DNA of 64,000 bases from Thermoanaerobaculia bacterium (lineage in GTDB: Bacteria; Acidobacteriota; Thermoanaerobaculia; UBA5066): positions 161,224 through 225,223 of the forward strand of contig CAWFJJ010000001.1 in NCBI GenBank assembly GCA_963816185.1. The letters are read 5' to 3'. The translations under genes and the position numbers were made by a program. The notes under the pieces were generated by a model. The model was given only the letters and a program-made list of their open reading frames with translations, did no database searches and was not told where the DNA came from. Positions within the stretch are counted from its first letter, which is position 1. Every line of letters starts with the position of its first letter. Shown here piece after piece: positions 2,494 through 57,155 of the stretch.

Positions 2494-4039
2494 ATGTCCG
2501 GCTCCCGGATTCTCGTCCTTTTCGCCCTCCTGCTCCTCGGCGCTGGGCGTCCTGCTCGGACTGCCCTCGTCCCTCGCGCCGGCCGCAGTCGTGATCGCCG
2601 TGGCGGCCGTTCTCGTTTTTCTCGCGGCGAGCCGGTCCCCCTCGTCCGCGGGTTCCCGCGCGGAGCCGGTGACGTCCGTGCGCGCGGTCTTCGGGCCGGC
2701 CGTGGACGCGATCGAGGCCGTCGCCGTCTACACGCTGGATCGGGCCGGCCGGATCGGCTACGCGAACAGAGGCGCGCGCCGCGCCCTCGGGATCGAGGAA
2801 CGCGACGTGGAAGGGCACGCCTCTTCGGAGCTGCCCGCCCTCGGCGCCGAGGCGCCCGAGATGATCGAGGGTCTGAACGAGGTCTTCGAGACCGGCCAGG
2901 CTCGAGCCGCTCGGCGGATCCTGCTGCCCGGGGACGGCGCGACGAAGGTCGAGTCGATCGTCTCGATGACGCCTGTCTTGCGGTACGGCAAGGTCGTCGA
3001 GGCCGCCATCTGGCGCGTCGACACGCGCGGTCCGGCAGGCGAGGACGAGCACCTCGCGCGCCTGCTCGATTCGTCGCCCGCGGGCCTCCTCGGCGTGGAC
3101 GCCGTGGGCCGCATCGAGGCGGTGAGCCGCCGGCTCGCGGAGTGGGTGGGGCGCCGCGCGGACGCTCTCGAGGGCCTCGACGTGGAGCGCTCGGAAGTCC
3201 TGCCCGAAGAGCTACGGGCGCTCATCCGCGCGCACGCCGTGAACCGGGCCCCGCAGGGCACGCCGACCACCCCGGTCGAGGAGGACGTCTCTCTCGTCAC
3301 GCCCGAAGGCGTTTCCCGGATGCTGCACGTCGTCGTGACGCCGCGCCCGGGCGGCGGAGCAGACGCCGTCTTTCTCGACGGGAGCTCGCGGCGCCGGCTC
3401 CTTGCCGAGCTGGACGCGGCCCGTCGGGCGCTCGCCGAGGCGCGCGAAGCCGCGGTGGACGTCCTGCAGTCCACGACGCGCGATCTCAAGACGCGCGTTC
3501 AGGAGATCGTGGCGGCGGCACGCCGCGCGGCGGACGAGACTTCCGGTCCGATCCAGCGCGCGCGCGCCGAGGCCGAGCTGAAGGCGACGAGCGACGAGCT
3601 TCTCGCGAGCGTCGACGAGAGCGGACCCCGGGACGCCCGCCGGCCGATCGGTGGCGCAGACGGCCGTCCGCGCGTCCTGCTCGTGGAGGACAACGAGGAA
3701 AATCGCGAGCTTCTCGCCCACATGCTGAGGTCGCGCGGCGCCGAGGTGCTCACGGCGGGCAGCGGTCGCGAGGCCGTGGACGCGGCCGCGGGCTTCCGCT
3801 TCGATTTCGTCCTCCTGGACCTGCACATGCCCGAGATGGACGGCTTCCAGGTGCTGAGGCGGCTGCGCGGCCTGCCGGACGGAGAGCGGTTGCCGGTCAT
3901 CGCGCTCACCGCGCTCACGTCCGACCTCATCAAGGAGCGATGCGAAGCGGAGGGAATGAACGACTTCGTGTCCAAGCCCGTGACGCTCGCGCGCGTCGGG
4001 GAGCTCGTGGCGAAATGGGGGCGTACGGGTCGGACCTGA
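2494..4039 (+). CDS. Membrane-anchored PAS-domain response regulator (REC at C-terminus). It has an apparent 1-nt frameshift near 2545.
   Basis: The ATG at 2494 encodes MSGSRILVLFALLLLGA in frame 1. From ~2545 frame 2 is continuous through two predicted TM helices, then through 2591..4039 with a PAS-like region and a C-terminal receiver (RVLLVEDNEENRELL ... DFVLLDLHMPEMDG ... DFVSKP). Removing one G from the GGG at 2544-2546 joins the frames. Confidence 0.7.
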
Positions 4040-4459
4040 CTACCAGCGCATCCGGTAGAGCATCGCGTAGACGACGACGCCGGTCAGGGAGACGTAGAGC
4101 CAGATCGGCAGCGTGAACCGGGCGAGCCTGCGATGCCGTTCGAACCGCCCGCGCCGGGCGAGGACGAACGTCGCGATCGCGAGCGGCGCGACAACGGCCG
4201 CGAGAACCGTGTGCGTGAAGAGAATGCCGAGATAGAGCGTCCGCGCGCGGCCCGTGCCGGGGAATCGCACGCTTCCGACCTGCGCGTGATAGGCGAGGTA
4301 CGAGACGAGGAAGAGCGTCGAGCACAGGAAGGCCGCCGTCATCGTGCGGCGGTGCGCGGCGATCTGCCGCTTCCGGATGAACGTCCAGCCGACGACGAGG
4401 AGGACGGCGCTCGTCGCGTTGAGGCAGGCGTTCAGCGTCGGCAGGTCGCGGACCGTCAT
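4040..4459 (-). CDS. DUF420 membrane protein (CtaM-like, cytochrome-oxidase associated)
   Basis: C-terminal 139 aa of the 248-aa ORF start at the internal Met (MTVRDLPTLNACLNATSAVLLVVGW ...). It is a four-TM DUF420-like sequence. It overlaps the stop of the upstream permease by 4 nt. Confidence 0.65.
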   Translation of the reverse strand: MTVRDLPTLNACLNATSAVLLVVGWTFIRKRQIAAHRRTMTAAFLCSTLFLVSYLAYHAQVGSVRFPGTGRARTLYLGILFTHTVLAAVVAPLAIATFVLARRGRFERHRRLARFTLPIWLYVSLTGVVVYAMLYRMRW

Positions 4460-5233
4460 CGGGCCCGAGGCTCTCGCGCGGCGGCGAGGCGGGCGGCGGG
4501 GCCCGCGGGAAAGCGCGCGACGACGGCCACGGCGGCCGCGAACATGAGGACGGCGAACGCCGCCGTCACGGCCCACGAGAGCGACGGAGACATCCACGCC
4601 GGCGCGGAGCCGCCGAGGGCCCGGCGCAGAGCCGCCACGCCGTAGGTGAGGGGGTTCACGGCCATCGCCGCGTGCAGCCACGATGGGGCGCCGTCGACCG
4701 GGAAGAAAGCCCCCGAGAGGAGCCACATCGGAATCAGGAAGAGATTCATGATCGCGTGGAAGCCCTGTGTCGATTCGAGCGACCACGCGATCGCGAATCC
4801 GAGGGACGTGAGCGCGAAGGAGAGGACCGCGAGCAGCGCGGCGGCGCCCAGAAGGCCCGGTCCGTCGACCTTGAGGCCGGTCAAAGGCACGAGGAGGAGC
4901 AGGGGAAGGCCCTGCATCAGCCCGAGCGCCGCCCCCCCGAGGATCTTTCCGAGCGCGATCGAGGCGGGAGCAACCGGCGAGACGAGGACTCCCTGCAGGA
5001 AGCCCTCGCGCCGGTCCTCGATGACGGAGATCGTCGCGAAGATCGCGGCGAAGAGGACGACGAGGACGACCGTGCCCGGGAAGAAATAGCCGAACGAGTC
5101 CTCGCGGAACGACCGCGGAAGCCCGAGCCCACGAGGATCCACATGACGAGGGGGGGAGCGACCGCTCCGACGATGCGGCTCTTCTGCCGGAAGAAGCGGA
5201 CGATCTCCCGGCGCGCGAGGGCGAGGGAGGAGC
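4456..5233 (-). CDS. ABC-2 type transporter permease. It has an apparent frameshift at a G7 tract.
   Basis: N-terminus VSSSLALARREIVRFFRQKSRIVGAVAPPLVMWILVGSGF in the frame of ORF 4917..5498. The body (VVLFAAIFATISVIEDRREGFLQGVLVSPV ...) is in the frame of ORF 4456..5142. The junction coincides with the ggggggg run at 5146-5152. The GTG start lies immediately after the ATPase stop. Confidence 0.7.
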
Positions 5234-5244
5234 TCACGGGAACC

Positions 5245-6216: not shown

Positions 6217-6240
6217 GTTCGCGGTGAGGATTCTCTCGCG

Positions 6241-7122: not shown

Positions 7123-8126
7123 GCGCGCAGGCGGGAGCTTACCGCGTTCGGAAGATTCCGGCAGGCCCCGGCCGAGACCGTGGCGAGGACGCCCGTGACC
7201 CAGCACAGGGCGCCCCCGGCGAGATGGGCGGCCGTCAGGGGCGGCGCTTTTTTCGACCAGATGGAAAGGGCGCCGAGGAGGATCTGGATCGCGACGAGGC
7301 CGGTCCATGTCGCGGCGAATCCGGCGAAAACACCGCTCACCGCCGAGAGTCGTGAGAGCGCGCGCACGGCAGCGAGGACGAGAACGAGAACGACGACGGC
7401 TCCGATCCTGTGCGCGAGGTGGAGGCCTACGCCGCGGCGATGGAGCTCATCCGCGGAGGGCCAGAGGCCGCCGAAGACGGTTGGGAAATCCGGGATCGCG
7501 AGGCCGGCCCCCGTGTGCCGCATGACCGCACCGAGGACGATCTGGACGTAGATCGCCGCGGTGGCGACCAGCGTCCATTGGAAAGCAGACGAGAGGTTTT
7601 TCTGCTGATATTCGGCGGCTGCATTTGCAGCCGTCGATAGCGTCAGATCATTCCACGTCTTCGAGCACATGAGCGCCACTACCGCAGTGAGGGCGAAGAC
7701 GATCTCGGCGAGGGCGGCGTGTGCAGACGAGATCGCCGGAGGCAGAAGAAACAGCACCGTGAGGCCGCCCAGGAGGGCCTGCAGCAAAATCGCTCCAAAC
7801 GCGACGGCGGCGAGGACCTTGACCGCTTTCCTGCCTTCTAAGAAAAAAAGAAACGCGCCCAGCTCCAGACCCACCAATGTGGAGACAGCCGCCGCGATGA
7901 GCCGATGGCCGTGCTCATAGAGGATGCCGCCGACCATCGGCGGCATGAGCTTGCCGTACGAGAGCGGCCAGTCCGGGACGGCGAGACCCGACCCGGTGGA
8001 CGTGACGAGCGCGCCCGCGACGAGGAGCAGGAAGACTCCAAGCGCGACGACGCGCGTTCCGATCCTCAGAATTCCGGCGTTCCGCGCCGCGTGTGCGTCC
8101 CTGTCCTTCGTCCTGTCCGCGCTCAT
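7119..8126 (-). CDS. ctaA: Haem A synthase (CtaA/COX15 family)
   Basis: Eight-TM protein from the internal Met (MSADRTKDR...). It has conserved His-containing helices (YEHGHRLIAA, HAALAE, HLAHRIGAV). Confidence 0.8.
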   Translation of the reverse strand: MSADRTKDRDAHAARNAGILRIGTRVVALGVFLLLVAGALVTSTGSGLAVPDWPLSYGKLMPPMVGGILYEHGHRLIAAAVSTLVGLELGAFLFFLEGRKAVKVLAAVAFGAILLQALLGGLTVLFLLPPAISSAHAALAEIVFALTAVVALMCSKTWNDLTLSTAANAAAEYQQKNLSSAFQWTLVATAAIYVQIVLGAVMRHTGAGLAIPDFPTVFGGLWPSADELHRRGVGLHLAHRIGAVVVLVLVLAAVRALSRLSAVSGVFAGFAATWTGLVAIQILLGALSIWSKKAPPLTAAHLAGGALCWVTGVLATVSAGACRNLPNAVSSRLRA

Positions 8127-8139
8127 CCCGTCTGGGAAA

Positions 8140-8985: not shown

Positions 8986-9042
8986 GCGGACCTCCTCGAC
9001 GGTCGATTTCCTTATCATGTTCCCCCGGAACGAGGGAAATCG

Positions 9043-12082: not shown

Positions 12083-12108
12083 TAGAGTTTTCGACCAGGA
12101 GGACGACG

Positions 12109-12396: not shown

Positions 12397-12466
12397 AGAA
12401 GGAAGCGACGAGCCGGCGCGCCAGCCCTCTTTACCTTCTAAGAAAGAATTTCTTTCTTTCTCTTTC

Positions 12467-13549: not shown

Positions 13550-13587
13550 GGGAGGCGGACGCGGGCGGCCCGGGAGGACCGCCGCGA

Positions 13588-13967: not shown

Positions 13968-15630
13968 GTGCTCGTTCTCAACGTGCGCGTGCCCGGAGAG
14001 CCGGCGCGCCGCATCCGGCTCGACCGCCCGGTCCTGACGCTCGGCCGCTCCTCCACGAACGACGTCCCCCTCGGGGATCGGACGCTCTCGCGCGTGCACG
14101 CACGAATCGAGGGCGTCCTCGACGGCGGGCCGATCCGTCTCGTGGACCTCGGATCGCGGAACGGCACGTCCCTGAACGGCTCGCGCATCACGGAGCCGAC
14201 GCCGCTTTCGGCCGGGGACCGCATCCAGCTCGGCGAGACGCTCGTGGAGATCATCGAGGAATCCACGACCCGCGTCGTCATCGATCCCTTCGGGGAAGAG
14301 AGCTCCAAGAGAACGACGTTCCTGCAGTCCTCCAAGGATCTCCTGCGTCCGCACAAGCAGGAGCGGGACTCGAAGCTCGGGGCCGAGGAGCTCGCGCGCC
14401 TGAACGCGTCGCTCCGGATGCTCAACGAGATCTCCGTCGAGCTTCTCGGCGATATCCCGTTGAACCGCCTGCTCGAGCTGATCCTCGAAAAGACCTTCAC
14501 GTTCCTGCAGCCCGACCGCGGTCTCCTGATGCTCGCGGACGAGCACGGGGAGCTGAAACCGGAGAAGGTGAAGTATGCCCCGGGCGTCGACCCGTCCGAC
14601 ATCCGGCTCAGCAAGACGCTCATCCAGTCGGTGGTGGAAAAGAAGAACGGCGTCCTCCTGATCGACGCGGCGACGGACGCCGGTCTCGGCGCCGCCGAGT
14701 CGATCCGGATCCAGGGCATCACGTCCTGCATGGCGGCCCCTCTTTTCGTCGAGGACAGGGTCATCGGACTCATCTACCTCGAGGTGCGGCTCGGGCGGAA
14801 GAGCTTCAGCGAGGAGGACCTGCGCCTCCTGACCTCCCTCGCGAACACGTCCGCCATCAAGATCCAGAATCTGCGCCTGCAGGAAGGCGCCGCGGCCCGG
14901 AAGCGCATCGAGAGCCGAGATGGCTCTCGCGTGGGACATCCAGCGGCGCCTGCTGCCGGAAGCCGAGCCCATCCTGCCGCACACGGAGCTCCTCGGCCGG
15001 ACGGTTCCGGCGAGCACGGTCTCGGGGGACTATTACGACTTCTTCGAGCGGGGGGACAAGTCGCTCGACGTCGTCGTCGCGGACGTGAGCGGAAAAGGCA
15101 TGGGCGCCTCGATTCTCGCGGCCTCGGTGCAGGCCGCGTTCCAGGCGTGGGCCGGAGAGCACTTCCCGCCGGATCGGCTCTGCTCGCGGCTCAACGAGAT
15201 GGTCTTCCGGCGCACGAGCCCGGAGAAGTTCATCACGTTCTTCCTCGCGCTCTACGATCCCGAGTCGGGCTCCGTCGTGTTCACGAACGCGGGTCACAAC
15301 CCGGGCATTCTCGTGCGGGCCGGCGGCGCCACGGAGCTGCTCGGCGCCCACGGGCCTCCGCTCGGGCTCTTTCCGGGAAAGACCTACGGTTCGGGGACCT
15401 TCACGCTGGAGACGGGCGACGTCCTCGCCCTCTACACCGACGGCGTGACGGAGGCCGCGAATCCCGAGGACGAGGAATTCGGGACGCCGCGCCTCGTCGA
15501 GACGCTCGTGAGGGCGCGCCGGGGCTCAGTCGCGCAGATCGAAGCCGAGGTCGGCGCGGCTCTCACGGCGTTTACCGCCGGCACGCCTTTCGGCGATGAC
15601 CGGACGTTCGTCGTACTGAAGCGAACCTAG
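13968..15630 (+). CDS. FHA-GAF-PP2C (SpoIIE-type) serine/threonine phosphatase. It has an apparent +1 frameshift near 14900.
   Basis: ORF 13968..15599 carries an FHA domain ([13 protein letters not shown] ... SRVHARI ... [10 protein letters not shown]) and a GAF domain. ORF 14920..15630 in the +1 frame carries the PP2C domain ([14 protein letters not shown] ... GDYYDFF ... [13 protein letters not shown] ... [11 protein letters not shown]). The frame-0 continuation is low-complexity. Confidence 0.75.
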
Positions 15631-15679: not shown

Positions 15680-16288
15680 TCAGCCGCCCTTCGGCTCCCC
15701 CATGAGTTCTCCTCGCTCGTTGTAATAGCACCGGCAGTTGCGGCGGAGCTCTCCGTTGAGCATGGTGCGGGCTCGGTGCAGCCTGATCTTGACGGTTCCC
15801 ACGGAGAGGGAGAGGCGACGAGCGGTCTCCTCGCTCGTCAAATCCTCGAACTCGCTGAGGACGTATACGTCGTGGTAGCGGGGGGGAAGCTTTCGGACGT
15901 AGTCGAGGTAGCACGCGACCATCTCGTTCCGAACCGCGTTCTCCTCGGGCGTGCGCGAGCCGGGGTCCGGAAGGCGCGAAGAGGCGGTGTCTTCCTCGTC
16001 ATTTCGCCACGCGGGCTCGGAGCGTTTTCGTCGGGCCGCATCCCGGACCGTGTTGAGGGTGATCGTGTAGATCCAGGATGTCAGCTTCGAGGAGTCCGAG
16101 ACCGTCGACAGGGACCGACGAATCTTGACGAAGACCTCCTGGGCGATGTCGTCGGCTTCGTTGCGGCCGAGCAGCTTGGCCGCATAAGCCACCACCTTGC
16201 CGTGGTAGGTCTCGTAGATCCGAGAGAGGTCGAGGGCCCCATCGCTCACCGGCGCTCCTCCACGGAACCGTCCCTCGAATTGTCCCAC
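15680..16288 (-). CDS. ECF-subfamily RNA polymerase sigma factor
   Basis: 202 aa. It has region 2 (DIAQEVFVKI) and region 4 HTH (TSEETARRLSLSVGTVKIRLHRAR). The C-terminal tail has CRCYYNE. Confidence 0.85.
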   Translation of the reverse strand: MGQFEGRFRGGAPVSDGALDLSRIYETYHGKVVAYAAKLLGRNEADDIAQEVFVKIRRSLSTVSDSSKLTSWIYTITLNTVRDAARRKRSEPAWRNDEEDTASSRLPDPGSRTPEENAVRNEMVACYLDYVRKLPPRYHDVYVLSEFEDLTSEETARRLSLSVGTVKIRLHRARTMLNGELRRNCRCYYNERGELMGEPKGG

Positions 16289-29655: not shown

Positions 29656-29657
29656 GG

Positions 29658-33893: not shown

Positions 33894-35640
33894 ATGAAAA
33901 AGTTTTCCGTCCTCATCGCCTTGGTGCTCCTCGCGGTCGCGGGCACGGGCTATGCGGTCACCTGCGCGTATGACAACGTGCCGGCGGCCACGTTGCTCGT
34001 TCCGTACTGGAAGGTGTCCCTGAACGGGGCCGCGGGCGCGCCCATCCCCACCGGCGGCACGGACACCCTCGTGTCGATCGTCAACGTCTCCACGCCGGGC
34101 GTCATCGCGCACGTCACGGTCTGGAACAAGTATTCCAAGGCTGTCATCGACTTCAACCTTCCCCTCACCGGGAAGGACGAAGTCTCGTTCTCGATGCGCG
34201 ACATCATGAACGGCAGGCTGAGCCCGAACTTCCCGCAGTGCGACCTGCTCCTGCCTGCGGCTGATCTCGCGAAGTGCCTGGCGACCTACAAGGTCGACCC
34301 GTGCGGCCTGAAGAACCCCGGCCTGCCGACCGCGGTGTACGTGCCGAGCGTCGGCTTCGGCCAGACCCAGTTCATCCGCTTCTCGCACCCCGATGCGGCT
34401 GCCCTGGGCACCGATGTCCTCACGTCGATCTCGCAGTACAACCTCACCACTCAGGACGCGATCGGAGCGGGCTTCCGCGGCAGTCGTGTGGAACTCGCTC
34501 GACGAGTCCGGCGACGTCACGTCGTTCACGTCCTCCTCGGGCGCGAACATCCTCGACAAGGACAACCCGGCTTGCGGCTGGGCCGCCAGCAACCCGGTGG
34601 GTGGCGCCCTGTCCGGCTACCTCACGATCGACGTCGTGAACTATTGCACGAACTTCTTCCCCGACCAGGCCGACTTCTACAACAAGGACGCGATCGCGAC
34701 GGCCGGTTGGACCCAGTCCGCGTACACGAACTTCCCGTGCACGACCGGAGTCGCATGCGCCGTCACGTACACGCCGAACGTCCTGATCGGCGACGTGTTC
34801 TACGTTGACACCGCCACGCAGGGCGGCAACGTCTCGGGCGACCCGGCTGTCGCGCTCGAGTTCGACGCGCGCCTCCCGTTCTCGAACGCAAATGAATCGA
34901 TAAACAAGACCTTCTTCGGCAAGTTCGTCGAGCTGGTCGCCGGCGCGACGGCCGCGTGCCCCGCAGAGCTCACGATTGGTTGCCAGAACCCGAACGTCCC
35001 CGTGAATTTCCGGTTCCCCGGCGACGGCCGCGAGCCCCTCGGCGACCATTACGGCTTCCGCTATCTGGCCGACCAGGCCAACGGCCTTCAGTCCTGGATC
35101 ACCGTTTGGCGCAGCGACATCTACCTGGACACCGCTGGCCTCCCCACCGAGGTCAACCTGTGTGACTGGGCCGATCCCACGAAGGACGCCAACAACGGCG
35201 CCTCGGGCTCTGGGCTCTTCGACGATCTGCACCAGGTCGTGATCCTCACCTACGACAACGACGAGAACCTGTTCGGCGGCGTCGGCGTTCCTCCGGGCCC
35301 GTCCGGTCAGCAGCCCGGCAGCTCGTCCCCGAACTACATCTTCCTCGAGTCCCAGCGCATCGACCTGCTCGCGTCATCGACCGCAGGGACTGGCTGGAAC
35401 CCGCAGCCCTTCAAGGGCGGCTGGGTCGACATCACGTTCCGCGGACCCACGTGGACGGGCGCGGATGATGAGACCGGCTTCTGGAACCAGGCTTGGGTCG
35501 GCGTGCAGCACACTGCTCCCGGCGCGTTCATCAGCGTCGGTCACGCCGCGTCAGACCTGAACAATGACTTCCAGTGCCAGCCGAACAGGTCCACGTTTGG
35601 AACGTACGTCAACTTCCAAACGCCCTCAAACGGCTTCTAA
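33894..35640 (+). CDS. Secreted Cys-rich protein of unknown function. It has an apparent +1 frameshift near 34478.
   Basis: AGGAGT RBS. Signal peptide MKKFSVLIALVLLAVAGTGYA. ORF 33894..34808 continues in ORF 34393..35640. The junction ggcttccgcggcagtc is consistent with one extra C. The C-terminal frame extends with no stop. The gene is flanked by its own promoter candidate and terminator. Confidence 0.55.
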
Positions 35641-35662
35641 AGTCTCTTTTTCCTGATTCCCT

Positions 35663-35699
35663 GGGCGGGCGGCTTCGGCCGCCCGCCCTTTTCTTTTCT
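35663..35699 (+). terminator. Rho-independent terminator
   Basis: Perfect 11-bp GC stem gggcgggcggc-ttcg-gccgcccgccc followed by ttttcttttct. Confidence 0.65.
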
Positions 35700-35853
35700 G
35701 AAAGATGCCCCACATCCGGGACACTTCGATCCGGCCCCTCGGCCACGCGTAAATGACGAAACCGGCTGGACACGGCCCACGCTCGGAGATAAACTTACGC
35801 TCGGATCACCTTCGCCCTGGAAGGGTTATTCGCGCCCCTAATCGAGGACCCAG

Positions 35854-38800
35854 ATGCCCCATGTGACCCGCACTCGTCGCCACGATCGTTCTCGCGCGTC
35901 CCTTTTCGTGGCAGGCCCCGCCGCCATGGGACTTCTCCTGGTTCTTGCAACGCTTCCTTCGCGCCTGGAGGGTCAGTGCACGCTGTCGGGCTCGCCGGCT
36001 GCGTTCGAACCGAATCCACCCGGCGTCACGCGGCCCGGAACCCTGAGTAGCGGATTCAACAACAGCCTCGTGCTCTATCAGCCGGCGGCAGCGGTCCGTA
36101 TCGGCTCCTCATGCAGGAGTCGTTCGGCTACTCGGTCCTCGATCTCACGACACCGACGAATCCGACCGCGCTCACGTACCACGACATCCGGTTTCCGTTA
36201 GGCGGCCCCAACAGCGTGCGCGCAAGCCGGCGACGGGCAGAATCTCGTTCAGACGATCGCCGTGTCTCCGGACGGGGTGCGCGGGGCCTTCTCGATGACG
36301 GGGCTGTCGGCGACGATCCAGACGGCCGTCGGAACTCCCAGCGGCGGAGGCGGCTTTACCCTCTGGGGGGATTTCTATCCCAAGCGTTCGAACAGCACGC
36401 TCGTCCAGCACATCGGCACACGTTACATCGCGTACGACATCCACCCGAACGTCGTGACGGCCTCGGACGTCAGCTCGTTACCGGGGGGCTCTCTCCAGCC
36501 CAACAACCTCTCGTACGAGATCACGACGTGGCCGGGCGGAGGCCGCGCGGTCCTGGCCGGGAACTACATTCTCTACCAGATCACCGGCGCCATCCGGGTC
36601 ATCGATGCGTCCCTTCCGGGACCCGTCGGAAACATCACGGCCTCTTACCCGCAGACGTCCATCACGAACGCCGATTTTCCCGGCGGCCGCACGATCGCGA
36701 ACTTCACGGCGGCCGTCGATCCGGCCGACGCGACGAAGCTCTGGGTCCTCGTGGAGCTGAGCGCGCTGGCCGGCGAGAACTCGCCCAGCTACGGGCTTCT
36801 CTCCGTCACGAAGAGCGGCCTCGGAAAGGTCTCGGCGGGCCCGACCTGGCGAGTCCCGTCGCAGACGGGCGACGTGTGGCTGCCCGTGGGGATGAGCTCG
36901 GCTCTCGTTGCGAACGGCACCGACCTGTTCGTCCTGATGTGGGCGGAGAGCCAGCTCCCGACGAACCAGTTCCTCCTCTATTCGACGACGGCGGGAGCAT
37001 GGGGGAGCGTGGCTCCGAGCTCATTTCCCGTGAGCGGCACGACGTTCGCGCTCCCGGGGAGGACGGCGGGCTTCGGGGTCGCGGGGACCAGCTCCGTCTA
37101 CTTGTACGTGCCCACGACGGTGTCCGCATACGTGATCCCGATGTCCTGCGTTTCCGTAAACGCGCCCGCGGTCGCATCGATGACCGTCGCCAACCAGGCG
37201 GGCGCAGCTCTCAACAACGGCGACACCGTGTTCCTGGGCGACCGGATCACGATCACTCCGTCGATCAACCCGCCGCCGTCGACCCAGCCCCTGACGGGAT
37301 TCGGCTGGAACTTCGACCTCGACTTTCACGCGGGCGCCGCGTCCGAAGACAACGGCGCCACCGCGTCGCCACGCCTCCATGCGCCGGACAACACCCTGGG
37401 GGTGTTCGGCGTCAGCCAGCAGGCTCCTCTCCCCGCGACCATCTTCGGCCCTTGTGATCCTCAGGTGGGCGGCGTGACCGTGAGTAGCGGCGCCGGCTGC
37501 TGGACCTCGGTCACGACGAACGGCGCGTTCGCCGGCGGCACGGCGGATTTCAACGCGCAAAGTCCGGTCGCGAAGGCCCTCACCTTCGCATTCGAGGCGA
37601 ACAACGTCCTCGGCAGTGCGGGCTCGAAGCTTTTCACGCTGAACTGGGCGATCCCTACGGCGAAGCTCCAGACGACGCAGGTCCTGTCCGGCAGTCCGCT
37701 CGTGAGCGCCTCCGACGGCCACCCGATGGCCACAGGCTTCAAGTGGTATTTCGGCGCGACTTCGGGGGCCCTGACGCAGGCGGCATGTGCCGGCCCGACG
37801 TGCGTGCCGACGTTCGACACGACGGGCACCTACAACTACTGGCTCACGGCGACGTACGCGAACGGGTACGTGACGCCGGACTGCCCGGGCGCTCCGAACT
37901 GCACGGCCGCGATGGGGACGTACACCATCACCGACTTCGCGCCGGCGTTCACCGTGAACGGCAGCACGAGCGGCCCGATCACGGGGGTCATCAACCAGAA
38001 CTTGAACGTGACGAACAGCTCGCAGCGCGGCCAGACCGTGACCGCCGCGGGAGGTTTCTATTACAGCCTCTGCAAGGTTCCCTGTACGGGCGGGGACCAA
38101 TACGTGCTCTGGGGCACGATGGGCGATGCCCCGCCGAGCGGCTCGCCTCCGTATGGTCCGGCGACGATTCCGATCCCGGCCGACGGCCGGGACCTACGCC
38201 CTCAAGATCAGGGTGAATTACACGAACCCGACCGGGACGGCGTTCTGGCCGGATCCGGCAGGCGTCTCCTACTTCACCGTGAACGTCGTGGACGTGACCC
38301 CGCTCGTCGTGACCGAGTCCGTGAACCCTGCGAGCGCGTCCGTCGGCCAGAACGTGACGTTCTCGTGCAACGCGAGCGGCGGCCTCACGCCCTATTCGTA
38401 CCAGTGGCGAAACCCGATCTCGTTCGTCATCCCTGGCGCAACGGGGCCGACGTACACGACCACGTCGACCGTCGCGGGGGGCGTCACGGCCTACTGCTTC
38501 GTCACGGACAGCCAGCAGCCGGTTCCCGCCTCGAGCAGCGCGAGCGCGACCGCGACGTTCACCGGAGGAGGAGGCGGAGGGGGAGGCGGCGGCGGCAATC
38601 TCTCCGTATACGTCTCGGCGAGTCCAAACCCCGGCGCGGTCGGCCAGCCGGTCACGTTCTCGTGCGGCGCCTCCGGCGGGACGGCTCCCTACTCGTACGT
38701 GTGGCGTTCGCCGGCCACGAGCGCGTTCCAGATCCCGGGAGCGACTTCGTCGAGCTACACGACGTCGTCGTCGGTCGTCGGGAGCCTCTCGGCGGGATGC

Positions 38801-40966
38801 ACCGTCACGGACAACGCCGGCGCGCAGAGCACCAACTCGACTACCGTCGCGATCAACGCTCCGGCCGGTCCGCCCGCCGTGTGCGTGGACGCGAACTTCA
38901 CGGTTCTCGACCGGGGAACCGCCCCCTGGGCCCAGATCCCGTCTTCCTCGGCGCTCGGGATTCAGTACTTCGCGGTGGAAACCGGACAGAAGCTCGCCCT
39001 GGTGGCTTCCGGCACCGGCCTGGCGAGCGCGGACTGGACGTTCGGAAACGGCGACACCGCGAGCGGCAATCCGGTGTGGTATTCGTACGCGACCGCCGGG
39101 ACGTTCAACACGACCCTCACCCTGAACTCGGCAACGGCGGGAACGGCCTGCACGAGGTCCTACAAGTTCATCGTCGCGGGCCCCTCGGGCCTCTTCACGG
39201 CGTACTACGCGGACAGCTCGCAGTTCACCTCGACGCAGGTGCAATCCGGGAAGGAGCTGACTTTCCTGGCCACGGACTCGGCCGACAGCTACGCGTGGGA
39301 CTTCGGCGACGGCACCACGGCGACCGGGAAGAGCGTGACGCACGCGTTCCACGTCAGCGGCGGGACGAGCGTCACGTTCACGACGACCCTCACCGTGACG
39401 ATCGGCTCGCAGAACTTGACGACGACGCAGAACTTCACCGTCATTCCGCCGCCCGAGCCGCCGAAGTGGTTCGTCGCGGGCATGGCGTACCTCCAGGGCT
39501 CGCTCGGGGACACGCTCTGGCAGACGGACGTCACCCTTTTCAACCCCGACCCGACCCGTCCGGGTACGTATTCACTCGCCTTCCTCGACGGAAGATCCCC
39601 CGTCGATCCGGCCAACCTCGTCTGGAAGACGATCAATCTCGGCGCGCAGCAGAGCATCTCGTCGCCGAACATCCTGGCCTTCTTCGGGCAGCCGCTCGGA
39701 AGCTACGGAGCCCTTCTCGTGCGGGGCGACTCGGCTCCCGTACCGCCCGTTCTGACGGCGCGTACGTTCAACAGCGGCGACCCCACGAAAGGGACGTTCG
39801 GTCTGTCCGTGCCGTCCACGCAGCCGTCCAGCGGCCTGACGCCTCAGGCCGCGCTCGCGCAGCAGTTCCTCATCGGCCTGCGTGACGACGACACGGCTTA
39901 CACGAACATCGGCCTCATGAACGTCACGACCGACTGGAGCCACGCGCGGCTCGAGTTCACGGATCGCAGCGGAGCCACGAGCTTCGGCAATGTGAACGTG
40001 GACGTGCCGCCGTACGGCGTCGCGCAGCTCTCGCGCCCGCTCTTCGCGGCTCCGCCCAACGGCGTGGGGTTCACGGATGCGCTGGACGAATTCAGCGTCA
40101 AGGTGTCGGTCCTCTCCGGCGGCGCGGTCTTCCCCTACGCGACCGTCATCGACCGCCGGTCGACGGACTCGATCGTCGTGACCGCGTCCGACCGGCCCTC
40201 GCCCACGTCTCGCATGCCCGGCATCATTCGCCTGCAGGGCGCGAACAACACCACGTGGCGGAGCCGTTTCTACATCACGAACCCGTCGACGACGTCCCGT
40301 AAGGCGTCGATCTCCTACTCCTTCATTCCCTGCGACGCGACCGGCTTCTGCAGGGGCCGCGTCACGGGCCTGCAGGCCGACGTGACGATGCTGCCTGGCG
40401 AGACGCTCTGGGCCGACGACTTCCCGAAAGTGTGGCTGGCCGGCTTCGGGTTCGACGTCTCCGACACCACGTCCTACGCGTCCTCGTACGTCGACGTCTC
40501 TCCTTCCCCCGACGACCCGAACCAGGATCCGCTGCTCGTCCTCGGCCAGACGTACAACGACCAGCCGAACGGCCCCGTGGGCCTTCAGGTGCCGGGCTTC
40601 ACCGACGCGGACACCGCTTCGAAGAACGGCGCTTACAAGCGCCTCCTCCTCGCGGGCCTGATCTCGAACGCCTCGTACCGCACGAACGTCGCGGTGTTCC
40701 TCCAGAGAGGCACGTCGGGAAAGTGCACGTTGCACGTGCTGTCCGACACCGGCGTCGAGCTGGGCCACCAGGACATCGGATTCGGCGGCACGAACACGTT
40801 CGTCCAGATCAACGACTCCGCGCTCTTCGGATCGATCTCCGGCAACAAGGACCGGCTCACGATCGTGATCGACTCGTTCGACGGCTCGCCCATCTCGGCG
40901 TACGCGACCGTCGTCGACAATACCTCGGGCGACGCGACGTTCCTGAAGGCCCAACCGGCCCCCTGA
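35854..40966 (+). CDS. Giant secreted Ser/Thr/Gly-rich surface protein (~1700 aa) with PKD-like repeats and a poly-Gly11 tract. It is broken by at least 3 apparent frameshifts.
   Basis: Signal peptide in ORF 35854..36201. The protein continues in frame 0 (36111..), frame 1 (36262..) and frame 2 (38126..40966). Each junction gives a continuous sensible protein. PKD signatures: WDFGDGTTATGKSVTHAF and TFSCNASGGLTPYSYQWR/TFSCGASGGTAPYSYVWR. The junction at ~38190 (ggccgggacc) fits one extra G. Confidence 0.55.
38564..38596 (+). repeat. (GGN)11 simple repeat encoding Gly11
   Basis: The run ggaggaggaggcggagggggaggcggcggcggc lies inside the giant protein gene. Confidence 0.8.
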
Positions 40967-44222: not shown

Positions 44223-44239
44223 CGGCCCGAAAATACCTC

Positions 44240-48409: not shown

Positions 48410-48441
48410 TGAACTGATTGTAGGCGGTAAGCTTCCCCGAG

Positions 48442-49224: not shown

Positions 49225-49325
49225 TGGCGTCCGGGACAGGGGACATTCGGTCCGAACGCGGCGGGCAGGGCCTTTGCATTTCCGCCAAGGGGACGTGGAT
49301 TGAAACCTCGTCCGGGAGCCCCAAA

Positions 49326-50429: not shown

Positions 50430-50457
50430 GACATCCCCGCGAATGCGGCGAAGAAGA

Positions 50458-50486
50458 GGGCCCGGGAAACCGGGCCCTTTTTGTTG
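50458..50486 (+). terminator. Rho-independent terminator
   Basis: gggcccgg-gaaa-ccgggccc followed by tttttgttg, 29 nt after the stop of the PEGA gene. Confidence 0.7.
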
Positions 50487-50708
50487 TCTGCAAGACCGAG
50501 TCGAGTACCCGGGTGATGCATCTGCATGTTCCGCGTGGCTTCTTTCGGCCCACAACTTGCGATGCACTCTGCAAACGTCGTTTTTGACGCGATTATGCCG
50601 ATTTTTGTCTTCCCTCGTTGATGGTCGACGCCGCGAATTCGTCGCGGTGATCCGACTGGAAGAAGCCCTCGCCTGTCGAGGGCGGTTGCCACAGGAAGGA
50701 CGTCAGTC

Positions 50709-51695: not shown

Positions 51696-51728
51696 ACGCG
51701 GGGCGGGGTCCGATATCCTGACGGGACC

Positions 51729-53261
51729 GTGTCGGTTCCTCGATCGGATCGCATCCCGCCCCTGTTGCTCGCTGCGTTCGCCGCCCTGGGGGCGTTGCCG
51801 GTCGTGCGCTCCCTCGTCGTCGCCGACGTCAACCTCTGCTACCCGTACATGACGGCGGACTCGTACGACTGGATCAGCAACGGCCTCTTCTGGTCGGGCA
51901 AGCCGGTCCTCGCGAGCCTGCGGCCGCCGGGGCTGCCCCTTGTCATCGCCGGGCTCTCGAGGCTCGGGGCGCTGTCGCTGCTCCCCGTCGTGAGCTTTCT
52001 CTTCCTCGGCCTCTCGACGGCTCTCCTCTACCTTCTCCTGAGGGAGCGGCACGACGCGTGGATCGCGGCGGCGGCCTCCTGGTTCTTCTTCGCGAACGAC
52101 GCCGTGCAGGACCTCGCGAGATACGTGCTGGCCGAGACCTACGCGACGCCCTTCGTCATCCTCGCGGCGCTCGCGTTCGTGCGCGCGGAACGCGACGTCC
52201 GGTGGTACCGCGTGATGGGAGGGGCGCTCGCGACCGCGTTCCTCTTCTCGTACGCCGCGGTTCCCGCGGGCATCGGGCTCGCGGTCGCCGTCGTCGCCGT
52301 GCGGGCCGGGGACGTGCGGAGCAAGGAGCTCTGGAAGGGCGCGCTGTCGACCGTGGTTGTCGCCCTCGGCTGGTTCGCCGTGCGCTCGTGGTTCCAACAC
52401 GCCCACCCGGACGCTCCTCGCCACGACTTCGAGGCGCTGCTCAGGCCGACGCTGTCGAACCTGACGTCGTACGCGATTTCCGGCGTCGCACTCCTCGGGC
52501 TCCTGCTGCTTCCGCTTTACGCGCTGGGGGCGTTGCGGCTCCTCGCCGGCGGCGTGGCCTCCCGCCGTTACCGGGCCGCGTCGATCTTCGCCGCCTCGGC
52601 GATCCTCGTCTTCATGGTCTTCTTCTACGACTGGGCCGACAAGCGATTCCTCGTCTACGTCCTCCCGTTCGCTACGTGCGCTTTCGCGGAGGGGCTCGAG
52701 AGTCTGCGGAGGTACGCAAAGCGAGGGCGCCTCGCGGCAACGGCGGCAGCCGCCTTCCTCGCCGCGTGTCTTCTCTGGAACCAGATCCGGTACCCGAGTT
52801 ACGGCTTTGGCTATCTCGCCCTGACGCCGGAGCGGTTCTTCGTGGCGGGGCGCACGACCGCGGCCAACCTGAAGACCGAGCTGCACCTGACGGGTGCGCA
52901 CCTCGTGCGCCTCCACGAGACGCTGGCCTCGAGTTTTTCGCGTGGGCTCTTCGATCCCCGTCCGCGCCCGGCGCCCTGTTCTCTCGCCGATCCCGCCTTC
53001 ACGTGCCTCGGGGCGCTCAAGGGTGCGGCGGACAGACTCCTCGCGGAGGGCCAGCCGATCGGATTCCGGCCGCCACAGAGCTGGCCCGCGGACAGGCTCG
53101 TGAGCTTCATTCGGCTCCGCAACATTTTCCTGAGGCCGATCGTCGATCCCGGAGCCGCCGACATCAGCCTGGCGGGTGTCGAGGCCGCACCGGGTGCGGA
53201 CTTCTCCCAGCCTCCGTTCGTGGCCCGCTGCGGGCCGTACGTACTCGTGCGGACGCGTTGA
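51729..53261 (+). CDS. Polytopic membrane protein. It is a candidate GT-C-fold glycosyltransferase or glycan ligase/polymerase.
   Basis: 510 aa with a GTG start. About 10 predicted TM helices in the first 330 aa, then a soluble C-terminal domain. The GT-C assignment is inference from architecture and locus context only. Confidence 0.4.
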   Translation: MSVPRSDRIPPLLLAAFAALGALPVVRSLVVADVNLCYPYMTADSYDWISNGLFWSGKPVLASLRPPGLPLVIAGLSRLGALSLLPVVSFLFLGLSTALLYLLLRERHDAWIAAAASWFFFANDAVQDLARYVLAETYATPFVILAALAFVRAERDVRWYRVMGGALATAFLFSYAAVPAGIGLAVAVVAVRAGDVRSKELWKGALSTVVVALGWFAVRSWFQHAHPDAPRHDFEALLRPTLSNLTSYAISGVALLGLLLLPLYALGALRLLAGGVASRRYRAASIFAASAILVFMVFFYDWADKRFLVYVLPFATCAFAEGLESLRRYAKRGRLAATAAAAFLAACLLWNQIRYPSYGFGYLALTPERFFVAGRTTAANLKTELHLTGAHLVRLHETLASSFSRGLFDPRPRPAPCSLADPAFTCLGALKGAADRLLAEGQPIGFRPPQSWPADRLVSFIRLRNIFLRPIVDPGAADISLAGVEAAPGADFSQPPFVARCGPYVLVRTR

Positions 53262-53323
53262 CGGTTAGTCGCCGAGCGAGAGTCGGAGGCGACGCATGGG
53301 GTATCGTGAGATTCAGAGACCCA

Positions 53324-54034
53324 ATGAAGTACGACGCCGTCATGGCCGCCCTTCGCGCGTTCGTCGTCGAGGGCGGCAAGCCCGAGAGCATCTTCCTTCT
53401 CACCGAAGGAGGAATGCGCGAGATCTACGATTGCATCGTCAAGAATCGGCTGCGCGCCTGCCTCGAGCTTGGGAGCGGATTCGGCGCGACGAGCTGTGTG
53501 ATGGGAGCGGCTGTGGCGGAGACGGGGGGCACCGTCACCACCATCGATCTTGCCCTCCACTGGCCCGCAAACGCCTCCACGTTGAAGGCGCACGTTGGAC
53601 TCGGTAACGAGCTCGAGGTCGTCGCGGATCCGCTCGGTTACAACTGGTACCTCGCCGACCTGATCGCAAAGCGGACCGTCAGCGGGAAGTGCGAGCCGCT
53701 GTTCGACTTCTGTTTCCTGGACGGCGCGCACGAGTGGGAGCCGGACGCTCTCGCAGTGATCCTCGCCGCGAAGCTCCTGAAGCCGGGCGGCTGGCTTGTC
53801 CTCGACGACCTCGACTTTGCTCTCCGGAGCATGCCGACGTGGAAGGAGTCGCACGGCCACCTGTCCGACCGCGAGCTCGACTCGTACCAACTCAAGATGG
53901 TCTGGGACCTCGTGATCAGACAACATCCCGACCTGACAGCCTTCGAAGTCACTGGGAACGGACGTATCGGCTGGGCGAGGAAGGTGGGCGTTTCGGCGGG
54001 CAAGGGATTGTTTTCCCGGCTCCTGGGCGGATGA
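53324..54034 (+). CDS. Class I SAM-dependent methyltransferase (O-methyltransferase-like, Methyltransf_24/TylF-type)
   Basis: SAM motif LELGSGFGATS. Acidic motif FCFLDGAHEWE. A possible GTG start at 53306. Confidence 0.7.
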   Translation: MKYDAVMAALRAFVVEGGKPESIFLLTEGGMREIYDCIVKNRLRACLELGSGFGATSCVMGAAVAETGGTVTTIDLALHWPANASTLKAHVGLGNELEVVADPLGYNWYLADLIAKRTVSGKCEPLFDFCFLDGAHEWEPDALAVILAAKLLKPGGWLVLDDLDFALRSMPTWKESHGHLSDRELDSYQLKMVWDLVIRQHPDLTAFEVTGNGRIGWARKVGVSAGKGLFSRLLGG

Positions 54035-54080
54035 CCGCCTCCTCCTCGCCTCGGACTCGCTGACCGTACAATTCCGTCGT

Positions 54081-56106
54081 TTGAGCCAGGATTCGTTCGA
54101 GGAGCTCCGCGAAGAGCTGGAGAAGACCCGCGCCGAGCTTTCGGAGGCGCGGGCGCGCATCGCGGGGATGGAGATGAGCTTCTTCTGGAAGGTCCGCAAT
54201 GCGTGGTGGAGGCTCAAAGGCGGGCTCGCCGGCAGCGCGCCGTCCGGCGAGCACACCGCGCGGCCCGCTGCGGATCCAGCGCTCGTCCACGTTCCCGGCT
54301 TCGCGCCCGTTCGCATCCGGCGCGCCGCATTCGATTGCTCGTCGGATGCCGTCGACGTCGTCGTTCTCGTTCACGACGATCTGCCCGTTCTCGAGGAGTG
54401 CCTCGGGGCCCTGCTCCGGCACGCGCGTCCCCCTTACAAGCTCTTCCTCGCCGATCCGGGCGTGTCGCCCGCGCCGCGGACCTGGCTGGAGGGTTTCGCG
54501 CGCGATCAGGGAGCCGTCCTCGTGCAGGGCGCAGACGCCTTCCAGGAAGCGTGTGGCGCGGGCGCGTCACGCTTCGCTCTCCTGCTCGACGGGCGCGCGC
54601 GCGTCGCGGCGGATTTCCTCGACCGGCTGATCGCCTGTCTCGCCTCCGATCCGAGAGACGGCGGGTGTCATTCCCCTCGCCGCCGACATTCCGGGCGCCG
54701 GCCCGGCCTTCGAGCGCGTCGAGCGCGCGCTGGCCGACGGGGATAGGGCTCCCGCGACTCTCCTCGCCGCCGAGTCGGCTCGGCTCTTTCCGGCATCCGG
54801 AGACGGTGGCGGCTGCGCGCTCCTCGTGAGGCGACCGGCATTGCGCTCCGGCGGATCGGAGCGCTCGCCAGGTGAGGTCCTCGCCCGGATGCGGGCCGAT
54901 AAGAAGCGGATTCTCCTTGCGGACGACACGTGGGTGGCCGGCGCCGCCGCCGCGGCCCCGGAGGCGCCGGACCGCGTGACCGCCGGCATCGCGGCCCGTT
55001 TCGCGATTCTGCCGGAGCGGGTCGGCCTTCGGGAGCGCGCGCGACGGCGGTGGGAAGGGAAGCGCGTCCTGTACGTCCTGCCGGTGCTCGAGCGCGGAGG
55101 CGGGTCGAACGTCGTCCTGGCGGAAGCGCGGGCGATGACGCGGATGGGCGTCGAAGCGCGCGTCTTCAACCTCGCGGGTCACCGATCCGTCTTCGAGAAG
55201 AGCTATCCGGCGCCGGGCGTTCCGATCGTCTACGGACGCGAGTCCGATCTCGTCGAGATCGCGCAGGGCTTCGACGCCGTGATCGGGACGGCTCACTACT
55301 CGGTGCCTTGGATGGTGCCGCTCGCGAGGCTTTCGCGGCCTCCGGTTCTCGGCTACTGCATCCAGGATTACGAGCCGCTCTTCTACGCCGAAGGCTCGGA
55401 CGATTGGAAGCGTGCGTTCGCCTCGTACTCTCTCGTGCCGGGCATGCGACGTTTCTCGAAGTCCGCGTGGAATGCCGACGAGGTCGTCGCCCGGACGGGC
55501 CTCGACTGCGCGCTCGTGAGCGCGAGCTTCGACGCGGACATCTTCCGCCCCCGGCTGCCGGAGCCTGCCGCAAGCCCGGTGCGGATCGCCGCGATGGTGC
55601 GTCCCTCGACGCCGCGGAGGCAGCCAGGCCTCACCGTCGACGTGATGCGGGCCCTCGCGCAGAAGCTCGGCGACCGGGTCGAGGTCGTCCTCTTCGGGTC
55701 CGAGCGGTCGGATCCCGCCCTGCGTCCACTTCGCCTCGACTTTCCGCACCGCTTCCTCGGCGTCCTCGACGACCGGCAGCTCTCGGCTCTCCTGTCGCAG
55801 GTGCACGTCTTCGCGGATCTCTCGACGTATCAGGCGCTCGGCGTCGCATCGCTCGAGGCCATGGCATCGGGCGCCGTGGTCGTCGTCCCGAAGACGGGCG
55901 GAGCGAACACATTCGCCACGCACGAGATCAACGCCCTCGCCGTCGACACGTCGTCCCGGGACGCTTGCGTCGCCTGCCTCGAGCGGCTCGCCACGGACGA
56001 GGCGCTCCTCCGGCGCCTCGCCGCTCAGGCGATCGCGGACGCCGGTCTCCATACGCCCGACCGCGCGGCGGCGGGCATCCTCGAGGTCCTGTTTGCACAA
56101 GCGTAG
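54081..56106 (+). CDS. Bifunctional glycosyltransferase (N-terminal coiled-coil + GT2 + GT4). It has an apparent frameshift near 54640.
   Basis: ORF 54081..54746 has a coiled coil (EELREELEKTRAELSEARARIAGME) and a GT2 start (VDVVVLVHDD). The GT2 domain continues in the frame of ORF 54826..56106 (GVIPLAADIPG ... GGCALLVRR), then the GT4 part (ASLEAMASGAVVVVP). The junction ggcgggtgtc fits one extra G. Confidence 0.65.
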
Positions 56107-57155
56107 GGTCCACGTCCTCCACGGCTTCTATGGCGCGGAGATTCCCTACAGCTGCACGTACATCCGCCTCCTGCGCCCGCTCTCGCATCCGGCCCTCGCT
56201 GACGAGATCGACCTGACGCACGGCACGGCGGAAGCGGTGCCCGACTGCGACCTCCTCGTCGTCGAGCGGCACGTTCTCTGGCCGTACGAGAGGCAGCTGG
56301 ACGGATTCGTCCGCGTGCTTTCCCGTTGCCGGCAGAAGGGCATCCCCGTCGTCTACGAGCTCGACGACAACCTGCTCGACCTCCACCGCGACGAGCCGTG
56401 GGAGACCGTACCCGGGAGACTCGCTCCGCGCCGTCGTCGCGTTTCTCGCGCGCCAGGCCGACGGCATGATCGTCTCGACGCCGGCGCTCGCGGAGCGCGT
56501 GGCGGATCTCAGAAGCGGGGTTCTCGTCGTGCCGAGTGCGCTCGACGAACGGCTCTTCGGCTCCGCGCCGGATCCCTTCCTGTCGCATTCATCCACGGTG
56601 ACGATCGGCTACATGGGCACGCTGACGCACGAGGCGGACCTCCGCATGGTGCTCGCGCCGCTCCGGGCGCTCCTCGCGCGCCACGCCGGAAGGGTGCGGC
56701 TGGAGCTCGTGGGCGGAGTCGCGGGGCGGAGGACGGCGTCACTTTTCGATGGCCTGCCGTTCCGGATGCGGGAGCCGGGGAACGAGGACCCTTACCCGAG
56801 GTTCGTCCCGTGGATGCGGCAGCATCTGCGATGGGACGTCGCGATCGCGCCGCTCGAGGACAACCCTTTCACGCGGTGCAAGTCCGACCTCAAGTACCTC
56901 GACTACGCGGCGCTCGGGATTCCGGCCGTCTTCAGCGACGTGCGCCCCTACCGGGATACGGTGCGCCATCGCGAGACGGGTCTCCTCGCTGCGAACGAGC
57001 CCAAGGCGTGGGCGGACGCGCTCGAGGAAATCGTGAGAGACGGCGCCCTTCGCGCACGGCTCGCGGAGGCCGCGAAGGCCGAGGTACACGGCAGCCGGAT
57101 GCTGAGGACGAACGCCGTGCTTTGGCGCGAGGTCCTGCTTTCGGTCGGTCGTTAG
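56093..57155 (+). CDS. Glycosyltransferase (GT-B, family 1/4-like). It has an apparent frameshift near 56420.
   Basis: N-terminal part in ORF 56093..57895 (TTG start). It continues in ORF 56466..57155 (GDSLRAVVAFLARQADGMIVSTPALAERV ... IGYMGTL). The junction gtacccgggagac fits one extra G. Confidence 0.6.

Follow-up and report, generated by a model that had tools for sequence, protein, structure and literature searches.

The window, the whole 64-kb stretch of DNA analysed here, belongs to a 696,463-bp contig of an uncultured Thermoanaerobaculia (Acidobacteriota) MAG that is entered in NCBI and ENA, and holds about 55 genes; the GC content of the genome is about 69%. Housekeeping functions are represented by prfA, rpmE, dnaJ, tmk and holB, each of them undamaged; seven other genes carry isolated single-base frame breaks, and one membrane-protein gene at 57851-59404 is heavily disrupted. 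An Rfam scan of the window, including the signal-poor stretch at 58-59.5 kb, returned zero RNA families. The lone tRNA call sits within a histidine-kinase gene and is most likely spurious.

To locate the frame breaks, the window was aligned with over 30 syntenic relatives, of which many come from short-read metagenomes (JGI and ENA contigs). The closest relatives are about 90% identical; none of those found reaches the 97% taken to mark the same species. A frameshift-aware protein-DNA alignment (hereafter DP), guided by orthologues, replaced longest-ORF tests of 1-bp edits. Such tests are misleading because spurious ORFs abound at about 69% GC, and for the same reason a long ORF restored by deleting one base from a G/C run is no proof of the site or direction of an indel. 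The locus L086/L087 (P0134), a non-syntenic paralogue, was dropped from the comparison. Locus L088 (ERZ25039488 contig_10) is syntenic and far too noisy as a reference, and was used as an example of an error signature only. Viterbi frame switches at 7174, 8140, 10163, 11302, 12070, 13600, 23818, 29664, 30580, 42262, 47388, 53247, 54026, 56093 and 60439 are ordinary gene boundaries on the basis of synteny or Pfam.

The PAS/response-regulator gene (2494..4039, forward strand; 514 aa when repaired; Pfam PAS_4 and Response_reg) carries a single surplus base within 2539-2548, the preferred placement being the C at 2541 (GG[C]GCTGGG), and this insertion removes the N-terminal membrane segment MSGSRILVLF... 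from the ORF. Blastn alignments show a gap at this site in four relatives (L006, L007, L008 and L009), and DP placed the extra base at 2539-2542 with three orthologues (84-87% amino acid identity). The ABC-2 permease gene (4456..5240, reverse strand) is missing one base at 5111-5112 (DP), where the window reads GA-CC against GAGCC in relatives (gap in 6 relatives). With a G inserted at 5112, the reading frame regains VMWILVGSGFRGSFREDSFGYFFPG and the match to the ABC2_membrane profile lengthens from positions 50-208 to positions 5-208 of 211. The FHA-GAF-SpoIIE (PP2C) phosphatase gene (13968..15630, forward strand; 553 aa when repaired, with Pfam FHA, GAF and SpoIIE all complete) has one extra base at 14910-14915, GAGAGCCGAG against GAGCG-CGAC in DNA alignments, and tblastn with 553-aa orthologues passes from frame 3 to frame 1 between 14899 and 14912.

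A conserved Cys-rich secreted protein (33894..35640, forward strand; about 580-581 aa when repaired; zero Pfam matches) is broken by one extra base at 34482-34483, GGCAGTCGTG against GGCA-CCGTC, with a gap in L107, L108 and L088; the repaired protein aligns over 97-100% of its length with more than 100 homologues of 520-600 aa. The giant PKD/Ig surface protein that follows (35908..40966, forward strand; about 1,700 aa when repaired) contains three indels, a missing base at 36080-36082 and extra bases at 36216-36218 and 38179-38180 (DP). Its orthologue in L108 is a single 1715-aa ORF, the gaps are seen in L108 and L088, P0146 corresponds to the middle frame, and six homologues go from frame 1 to frame 2 at 38181-38187. 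Two glycosyltransferase genes on the forward strand complete the set. The first (54081..56106; 674 aa when repaired; GT1/GT4-type C-terminal domain, Pfam Glycos_transf_1) has one extra base at 54648-54650, GATCCG against GA-CGG (gap in 13 metagenome relatives; 54648 by DP). The second, of GT1 type (56093..57155; about 353 aa when repaired; Pfam Glyco_trans_1_4), has one extra base at 56402-56406, GAGACCGTA against GAGA-CGTA or GAG-CCGTA (gap in 14 relatives; 56402-56405 by DP).

Exactly nine uncompensated, window-specific 1-bp indels were thus counted in seven genes (at about 2541, 5112, 14915, 34483, 36081, 36218, 38180, 54650 and 56406), seven being extra bases and two, at 5112 and 36081, missing ones. 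All aligned relatives are free of them (4, 6, 4, 3, 2, 2, 2, 13 and 14 loci, by site order). Frameshift-aware alignment recovered these breaks and no others, with no in-frame stop in the seven genes; the repaired ORFs are stop-free, their Pfam domains are complete, and the full-length repaired proteins share 64-94% identity with orthologues on both sides of the breaks. The broken genes amount to about 13-15% of the genes in the window, far above the level in a finished bacterial genome. No other uncompensated indel was present in any other gene compared with relatives; the gene lacking relatives for this comparison, a lone methyltransferase at 53.25-54.03 kb, is itself an intact ORF. Six of the nine indels lie at or beside CCG on the top strand. 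Four breaks fall within 34.5-38.2 kb and two at 54.6-56.4 kb, in a glycan locus that varies among strains, a clustering that fits lower effective coverage and also relaxed selection.

With respect to homopolymers, the nine sites follow chance: none lies in a run of at least 3, three lie in runs of 2 and six at run length 1, while 10.7% of bases are expected in G/C runs of at least 3 and 32% in runs of 2. Placement in a CC pair is possible for three indels (14915, 38180 and 56406), and the two deletions remove either a single unrepeated base or one base out of a GG pair. The window has 101 G/C runs of at least 5 bases (5-8), and every one of them is unbroken. A test for phase variation found no simple-sequence repeat tract at any of the nine sites, and the true indel sites have no slippery heptamer or long repeat.

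These breaks had been recognised in the original prediction, and each is confirmed as a 1-bp difference from every aligned relative, including two further breaks suspected in the giant protein (true sites 36080-36082 and 36216-36218). Its figure of at least nine broken genes becomes nine breaks in seven genes. The comparison with orthologues that it recommended located the true sites, and in doing so displaced the short G/C homopolymers at which the breaks had been put: five of the seven named junction motifs are off by 7-40 nt. The runs named as sites, G7 at 5146-5152, TTCCGCG at 34473-34479, GGG at 38189-38191, GGG at 54665-54667 and CCCGGG at 56409-56414, are neither longer nor shorter than in aligned relatives, or are read in frame, and are therefore not indel sites. 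Of the remaining motifs, the CC at 14914-14915 agrees with the alignments and the GGG at 2546-2548 possibly does. Nor does a one-base deletion restore the ORF in each resolved case, as had been stated: the ABC-2 permease lacks a base, and so does the break at 36081. Shortening G7 to G6 in the permease opens a high-GC frame of 332 codons that is spurious and lacks the C-terminus of the protein.

Frame switches are indeed numerous in the indel hotspot announced at 57.8-59.5 kb, which corresponds to one conserved membrane-protein gene (57851..59404, reverse strand; MAWIVFTNGENNLSNDY...; normal size about 556-564 aa). In DP alignment with relatives (45-49% identity) it shows 13-15 frameshifts, about 45 missing codons and one nonsense codon (Trp to stop at 59277-59279). 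The relatives have an intact ORF with a GC3 of 0.83-0.89, and as a control, aligning them with one another gave no frameshift in 17 of 20 comparisons and a single compensated pair in each of the remaining 3. The codon position-2 mismatch is 0.35 in the disrupted gene versus 0.21-0.25, and GC3 at identical-residue codons is 0.78 versus 0.87-0.90. The nucleotide gap-size spectrum is uninformative at about 72% identity, and a test for a mosaic of two allele clades in this gene showed no alternation. Several independent lesions are thus combined with relaxed constraint, and the gene shares with bacterial pseudogenes frameshifts, nonsense, net loss, weakened codon-position constraint and falling GC3. 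We regard it as probably a true pseudogene undergoing decay within a surface-glycan locus that varies among strains; a stretch of consensus at raw-read quality is a serious though somewhat less favoured possibility. The damage is far beyond the error rate of the nine isolated indels. The seven genes with isolated indels, unlike bacterial pseudogenes, are without those additional marks and have one to three 1-bp indels each only. The earlier statement that the broken genes are intact in vivo most likely applies to these seven, judging from their sequence, and is doubtful for the heavily disrupted gene at 57851-59404.

The nine isolated indels are best explained as long-read consensus errors at modest coverage, with a probability of about 0.8. 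The attribution to a sequencing or assembly artefact in the original prediction is most likely correct, as the differences are single-base, absent from 2-14 relatives and accompanied by no stops or decay, and we infer that they are errors and not mutations. Residual consensus errors would have left the 7 insertions and 2 deletions at ordinary, non-homopolymer positions, and would shift the frame in seven genes, so that gene callers would give fragments. The expected splitting is already present in the public calls of the source contig (P0121, 937 aa; P0257, a 384-aa fragment of the Cys-rich protein). Other very long contigs also yield truncated orthologues (P0041, P0052 and P0058), and P0125 and P0130 are truncated too, versus 1715 aa in L108. 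The error signature of the window matches that of L088 (same lineage, Flye-style naming) in consisting mostly of insertions outside homopolymers: L088 has 14 private indels (11 insertions and 3 deletions) in genes that are unbroken elsewhere, 10 of them at run length 1.

The window was probably assembled from long reads without short-read polishing, and the platform of the source contig was presumably of Nanopore type. Neighbouring relatives include MFD MAG contigs with the naming style contig_N; MFD MAGs are Nanopore-only and were produced with Flye --meta --nano-hq and one Medaka round (PMC12313526). R10.4 reads resolve homopolymers of fewer than 11 bases, but polishing is still required for bins under about 40x (PMC9262707). 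The indels most closely resemble the errors of Nanopore-only bacterial or MAG assemblies measured by the IDEEL protein-truncation test (PMC9262707; MFD-LR catalogue, PMC12313526), with which they share isolated 1-bp indels and split calls in genes that are perfect in other respects, an origin on a long contig assembled from a complex metagenome of soil or sediment, and persistence at modest coverage. They differ from the classical description of Nanopore errors, with its stress on homopolymers, in having none of nine in runs of at least 3, as would be expected of an R10.4-type chemistry if the platform is as supposed.

Collapsed strain heterogeneity, by which an extra base would arise where the assembler fused two alleles at a polymorphic position, would still be an artefact, with another cause and remedy. 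At 56402-56406 the GAGACCG of the window is indeed the union of the GAGA-CG and GAG-CCG of relatives, and six of the nine indels, together with the disrupted gene, fall in a hypervariable surface-glycan locus (31-59 kb) whose gene content varies among relatives. However, this allele-union pattern is present at one of nine sites only, and three indels lie outside the variable locus in conserved regulatory or transport genes; strain collapse is accordingly considered unlikely.

Consensus error is also preferred to genuine recent frameshifts, by which signalling, transport and surface-glycan functions would be inactivated through incipient decay or a mutator background. No broken gene is essential, so that real inactivation could be tolerated, and the apparent pseudogene in the same locus implies that some genuine decay occurs there. 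The intact state of the housekeeping genes points the same way and is uninformative, since nine random hits would spare the roughly 10% of housekeeping sequence with a probability of about 0.4. Against this, seven independent inactivations in 64 kb would have occurred with no stop, larger deletion or drop in conservation, in a free-living soil or sediment lineage whose orthologues are intact in all relatives. Natural slippage mutations concentrate in homopolymers, which the indels avoid, and bacterial mutation is generally deletion-biased, whereas insertions prevail here by 7 to 2. Genuine mutation is therefore judged quite improbable.

Homopolymer-length miscalling of the 454, Ion Torrent or Nanopore R9.4 type would make each break an over-called short G/C run. 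It likewise produces single-base frameshifts, a CC pair is a possible site for three of the indels, and GGG for that at 2541-2548. Errors of this type nevertheless sit in runs and worsen with run length, whereas in the window the long runs are intact, the runs of 2 are hit at the chance level, the named G7, GGG and CCCGGG are unaltered or in frame, indels occur at unrepeated bases, and two of them are deletions; this explanation is very unlikely. Phase-variable contingency loci (slipped-strand mispairing) also involve 1-bp indels that switch off genes for surface proteins and glycosyltransferases, and a window-specific G7 tract lies in the ABC-2 permease gene. Phase variation, programmed frameshifting and transcriptional slippage can nevertheless be rejected with near certainty because the orthologues are unbroken single ORFs that require no frameshift at any of the nine sites, the sites have no repeat tract and none is conserved in relatives, and the G7 encodes Pro-Pro in frame, 35 nt from the real break.

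Were the indels real, a population would be inactivating a block of signalling and surface genes by a non-slippage mechanism favouring CCG-adjacent sites, a prospect to which we attach little weight. The genes concerned in such a reading include those of the giant PKD protein, the Cys-rich secreted protein, the two glycosyltransferases, the ABC-2 exporter and the membrane protein. Read as consensus errors, the nine indels bring no new biology: the organism most likely carries all seven genes unbroken, as their otherwise undamaged sequences suggest. The finding is overall an ordinary one, and its value is practical. Automated annotation of the contig splits or truncates at least seven genes, which biases gene-content, pseudogene and protein-length statistics for this MAG, and residual long-read errors may fall outside homopolymers.

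By homology and synteny, the window is assigned to an uncultured lineage of Thermoanaerobaculia (Acidobacteriota). At the G+C content of the window (68-70%, with no Ns), spurious open reading frames of several hundred codons are present in all frames, and the length of an ORF by itself therefore has no value as evidence. Frame breaks were assessed from codon-usage segmentation and, above all, from orthologous loci. Syntenic DNA covers nearly the entire window: L006-L012 were used as reference for 1-14 kb, L001-L005 for 7-30.7 kb, L107 and L108 for 23.9-45.7 kb, and L089-L106 (18 metagenome contigs) for 44.5-64 kb. Long collinear blastn alignments gave 75-90% nucleotide identity between the window and these relatives. 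All blastn gaps were listed, only persistent phase changes were retained, and these were then confirmed with a frameshift-aware protein-to-DNA dynamic programme (DP), whose control run on intact yet divergent relatives was free of frameshifts in 17 of 20 pairings, with one compensated pair in the remaining 3.

Comparison with orthologues by blastn gaps and DP bore out the presence of 1-bp breaks in seven genes, with nine isolated indels in all. Extra bases were located in the PAS-response regulator at 2539-2548 (gap or frame switch against 4 relatives), the FHA-GAF-SpoIIE phosphatase at 14910-14915 (4 relatives), the Cys-rich 581-aa protein at 34482-34483 (3 relatives), glycosyltransferase A at 54648-54650 (13 relatives) and glycosyltransferase B at 56402-56406 (14 relatives), and a base is missing from the minus-strand ABC-2 permease at 5111-5112 (6 relatives). 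Three indels fall in the giant PKD protein: a missing base at 36080-36082 and an extra base at 36216-36218, both detected against 2 relatives and the protein P0146, and an extra base at 38179-38180, detected against 2 relatives and six protein homologues whose matches change frame at 38181-38187. Wherever else the segmentation changes frame on the same strand, the switch is an ordinary gene boundary, not a break.

All seven repaired ORFs are without stops, and the DP alignments with orthologues extend over the full length at 64-94% identity, with no in-frame stop in any of the seven genes. Coverage of the ABC2_membrane profile (Pfam) is 5-208 of 211 after repair vs 50-208 before; the FHA, GAF and SpoIIE domains (Pfam) are each complete in the repaired phosphatase; the full span of the repaired Cys-rich protein is matched by more than 100 homologues of 520-600 aa; and the giant protein is a single 1715-aa ORF in L108. 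The public proteins P0121 (937 aa) and P0257 (384 aa), which are 100% identical to window fragments, are the source contig's own truncated gene calls. The Cys-rich and giant proteins belong to a conserved Thermoanaerobaculia gene pair (33894-40966 in the window, 10001-17129 in L108), in which the gene for a secreted Cys-rich protein of ~580 aa, without Pfam domain and with more than 400 homologues, is followed directly 3' by that for a ~1,700-aa protein with PKD/Ig repeats; the neighbours of the pair are ABC-2/Wzt exporter genes and a glycosyltransferase cluster.

According to the alignment to relatives, the frame breaks of the original prediction are real, and its locations for them and its attribution to short G/C homopolymers are incorrect. 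Run length at the aligned indel sites is 1 in six of nine, 2 in three and at least 3 in none (by chance, 32% of bases are in G/C runs of at least 2 and 10.7% in runs of at least 3), and none of the 101 G/C runs of 5-8 bases in the window lies at a break. Four proposed indel sites, TTCCGCG (34473-34479), GGG (38189-38191), GGG (54665-54667) and CCCGGG (56409-56414), have equal length in the window and in the aligned relatives. The G7 run (5146-5152), to which the ABC-2 break had been assigned, encodes an in-frame Pro-Pro; removing one G yields a 332-codon open frame that is the wrong frame and is devoid of the permease C-terminus, and a base inserted at 5112 brings back ...VMWILVGSGFRGSFREDSFGYFFPG..., the same as in the orthologue. 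This run is private to the window sequence (relatives carry AGAGGCGG, AGAGGAGG or similar) and is only 35 nt from the true break. Of random positions, 56% have a G/C run of at least 3 no more than 10 nt away, and the association reported earlier is therefore expected by chance. Homopolymer error, the mechanism put forward originally, is wrong.

Six of the nine indels are at or directly before a top-strand CCG (12% for random sites), in the contexts GA|CCG, G[C]CGAG, CAG|CCG, GG[C]CGAC, GA[T]CCGAG and GA[C]CGTA, the positions given for this observation being 2541, 5112, 14915, 36081, 38180, 54650 and 56406. The enrichment was noted post hoc, with a nominal P of 2e-4 and of ~0.01 after correction for 64 trimers. 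Such a pattern could reflect context-specific or modification-related basecalling error; the errors of L088, a syntenic contig with a Flye-style name (ERZ25039488 contig_10), show no CCG pattern (3/14, by eye).

On these comparisons, the nine indels are probably artefacts (probability of about 0.8). Without the indel-rich region at 57.8-59.5 kb, error density is ~9 per 62 kb, or roughly Q38. The same indel signature is displayed by L088, where genes that are intact in the window and in L107/L108 carry 14 isolated 1-bp indels private to that contig, including 11 insertions and 10 at run length 1. Over the whole L088 locus, private 1-bp indels in conserved genes number about one per 250 nt, and the called genes are broken into pieces of 80-320 aa, a far worse case of the same problem. 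Truncated orthologues are found on other very long contigs (P0041, P0052, P0058, P0125 and P0130). Relatives under adjacent ENA accessions come from the long-read MAGs of Microflora Danica (contig_12409, for instance, is MFD04944.bin.2.108). This catalogue is Nanopore-only, with assembly by Flye --meta --nano-hq and a single round of Medaka polishing, and was checked by its authors for Nanopore-associated errors (PMC12313526). With R10.4, homopolymers of fewer than 11 bases are resolved at the consensus level and bins below ~40x still require polishing (PMC9262707), a pattern that the window resembles in having correct long runs and residual scattered non-homopolymer indels.

Collapsed strain variation may contribute to the indels, since the site at 56402-56406 resembles the union of two alleles found among relatives. 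Six of the nine are concentrated in the strain-variable glycan locus (31-59 kb), which fits either lower effective coverage or a strain mixture. Genuine mutation would require seven independent inactivations among ~55 genes, none with a further lesion, and is opposed by the bias to insertions (7 vs 2) and by the way the indels steer clear of homopolymers, where real slippage indels cluster.

Other features were recorded along the window. The Methyltransf_24 gene (53249-54031) and the Methyltransf_11/23 gene (57155-57796) are absent from most metagenome relatives. Between the genes for the FHA phosphatase and the sigma-54 regulator (15680-16288), the window has one ORF of ~200 aa, L001 has none, and L002/L003 have four genes. 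Window positions 55696-57115 are matched twice in opposite orientations by L102 (Ga0075520_1005062; 3343 to 1925 and 3324 to 4742), which suggests a palindromic assembly artefact of the fold-back type. The 93-nt tRNA-Ser(GGA) called by ARAGORN at 18367-18459 (+), within a minus-strand histidine-kinase gene and without Rfam support, is most likely a false positive.

The supposed hotspot at 57.8-59.5 kb does contain many frameshifts, which belong to one badly damaged gene. Relatives have here an unbroken ORF of 556-564 aa on the minus strand (GC3, the G+C at third codon positions, of 0.83-0.89) whose product has no Pfam match, and the window copy (57851-59404, minus strand) aligns with it end to end at 45-49% identity, with 13-15 frameshifts, ~45 codons missing and one nonsense codon, in place of Trp, at 59277-59279. 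The product is a conserved membrane protein (MAWIVFTNGENNLSNDY...) of a fast-evolving family (only ~58% amino acid identity between two clades), encoded in relatives between the glycosyltransferase cluster and holB. Mismatch at codon positions 1, 2 and 3 is 0.39-0.45, 0.34-0.36 and 0.52-0.55, compared with 0.30-0.34, 0.21-0.25 and 0.40-0.48 in the most divergent intact pairs, and GC3 at identical-residue codons is 0.78 vs 0.87-0.90; both flanks are intact (methyltransferase at 57155-57796, holB from 59488). A genuine pseudogene is somewhat favoured over a patch of raw-read quality, the latter being a less probable yet serious alternative, because a drop of ten points in GC3 cannot result from errors at a rate of a few per cent.

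The original view, that the breaks are sequencing artefacts and the genes are whole in vivo, probably holds for the seven genes and is doubtful for the one at 57851-59404. The nine indels would represent a commonplace quality defect in a long-read MAG.
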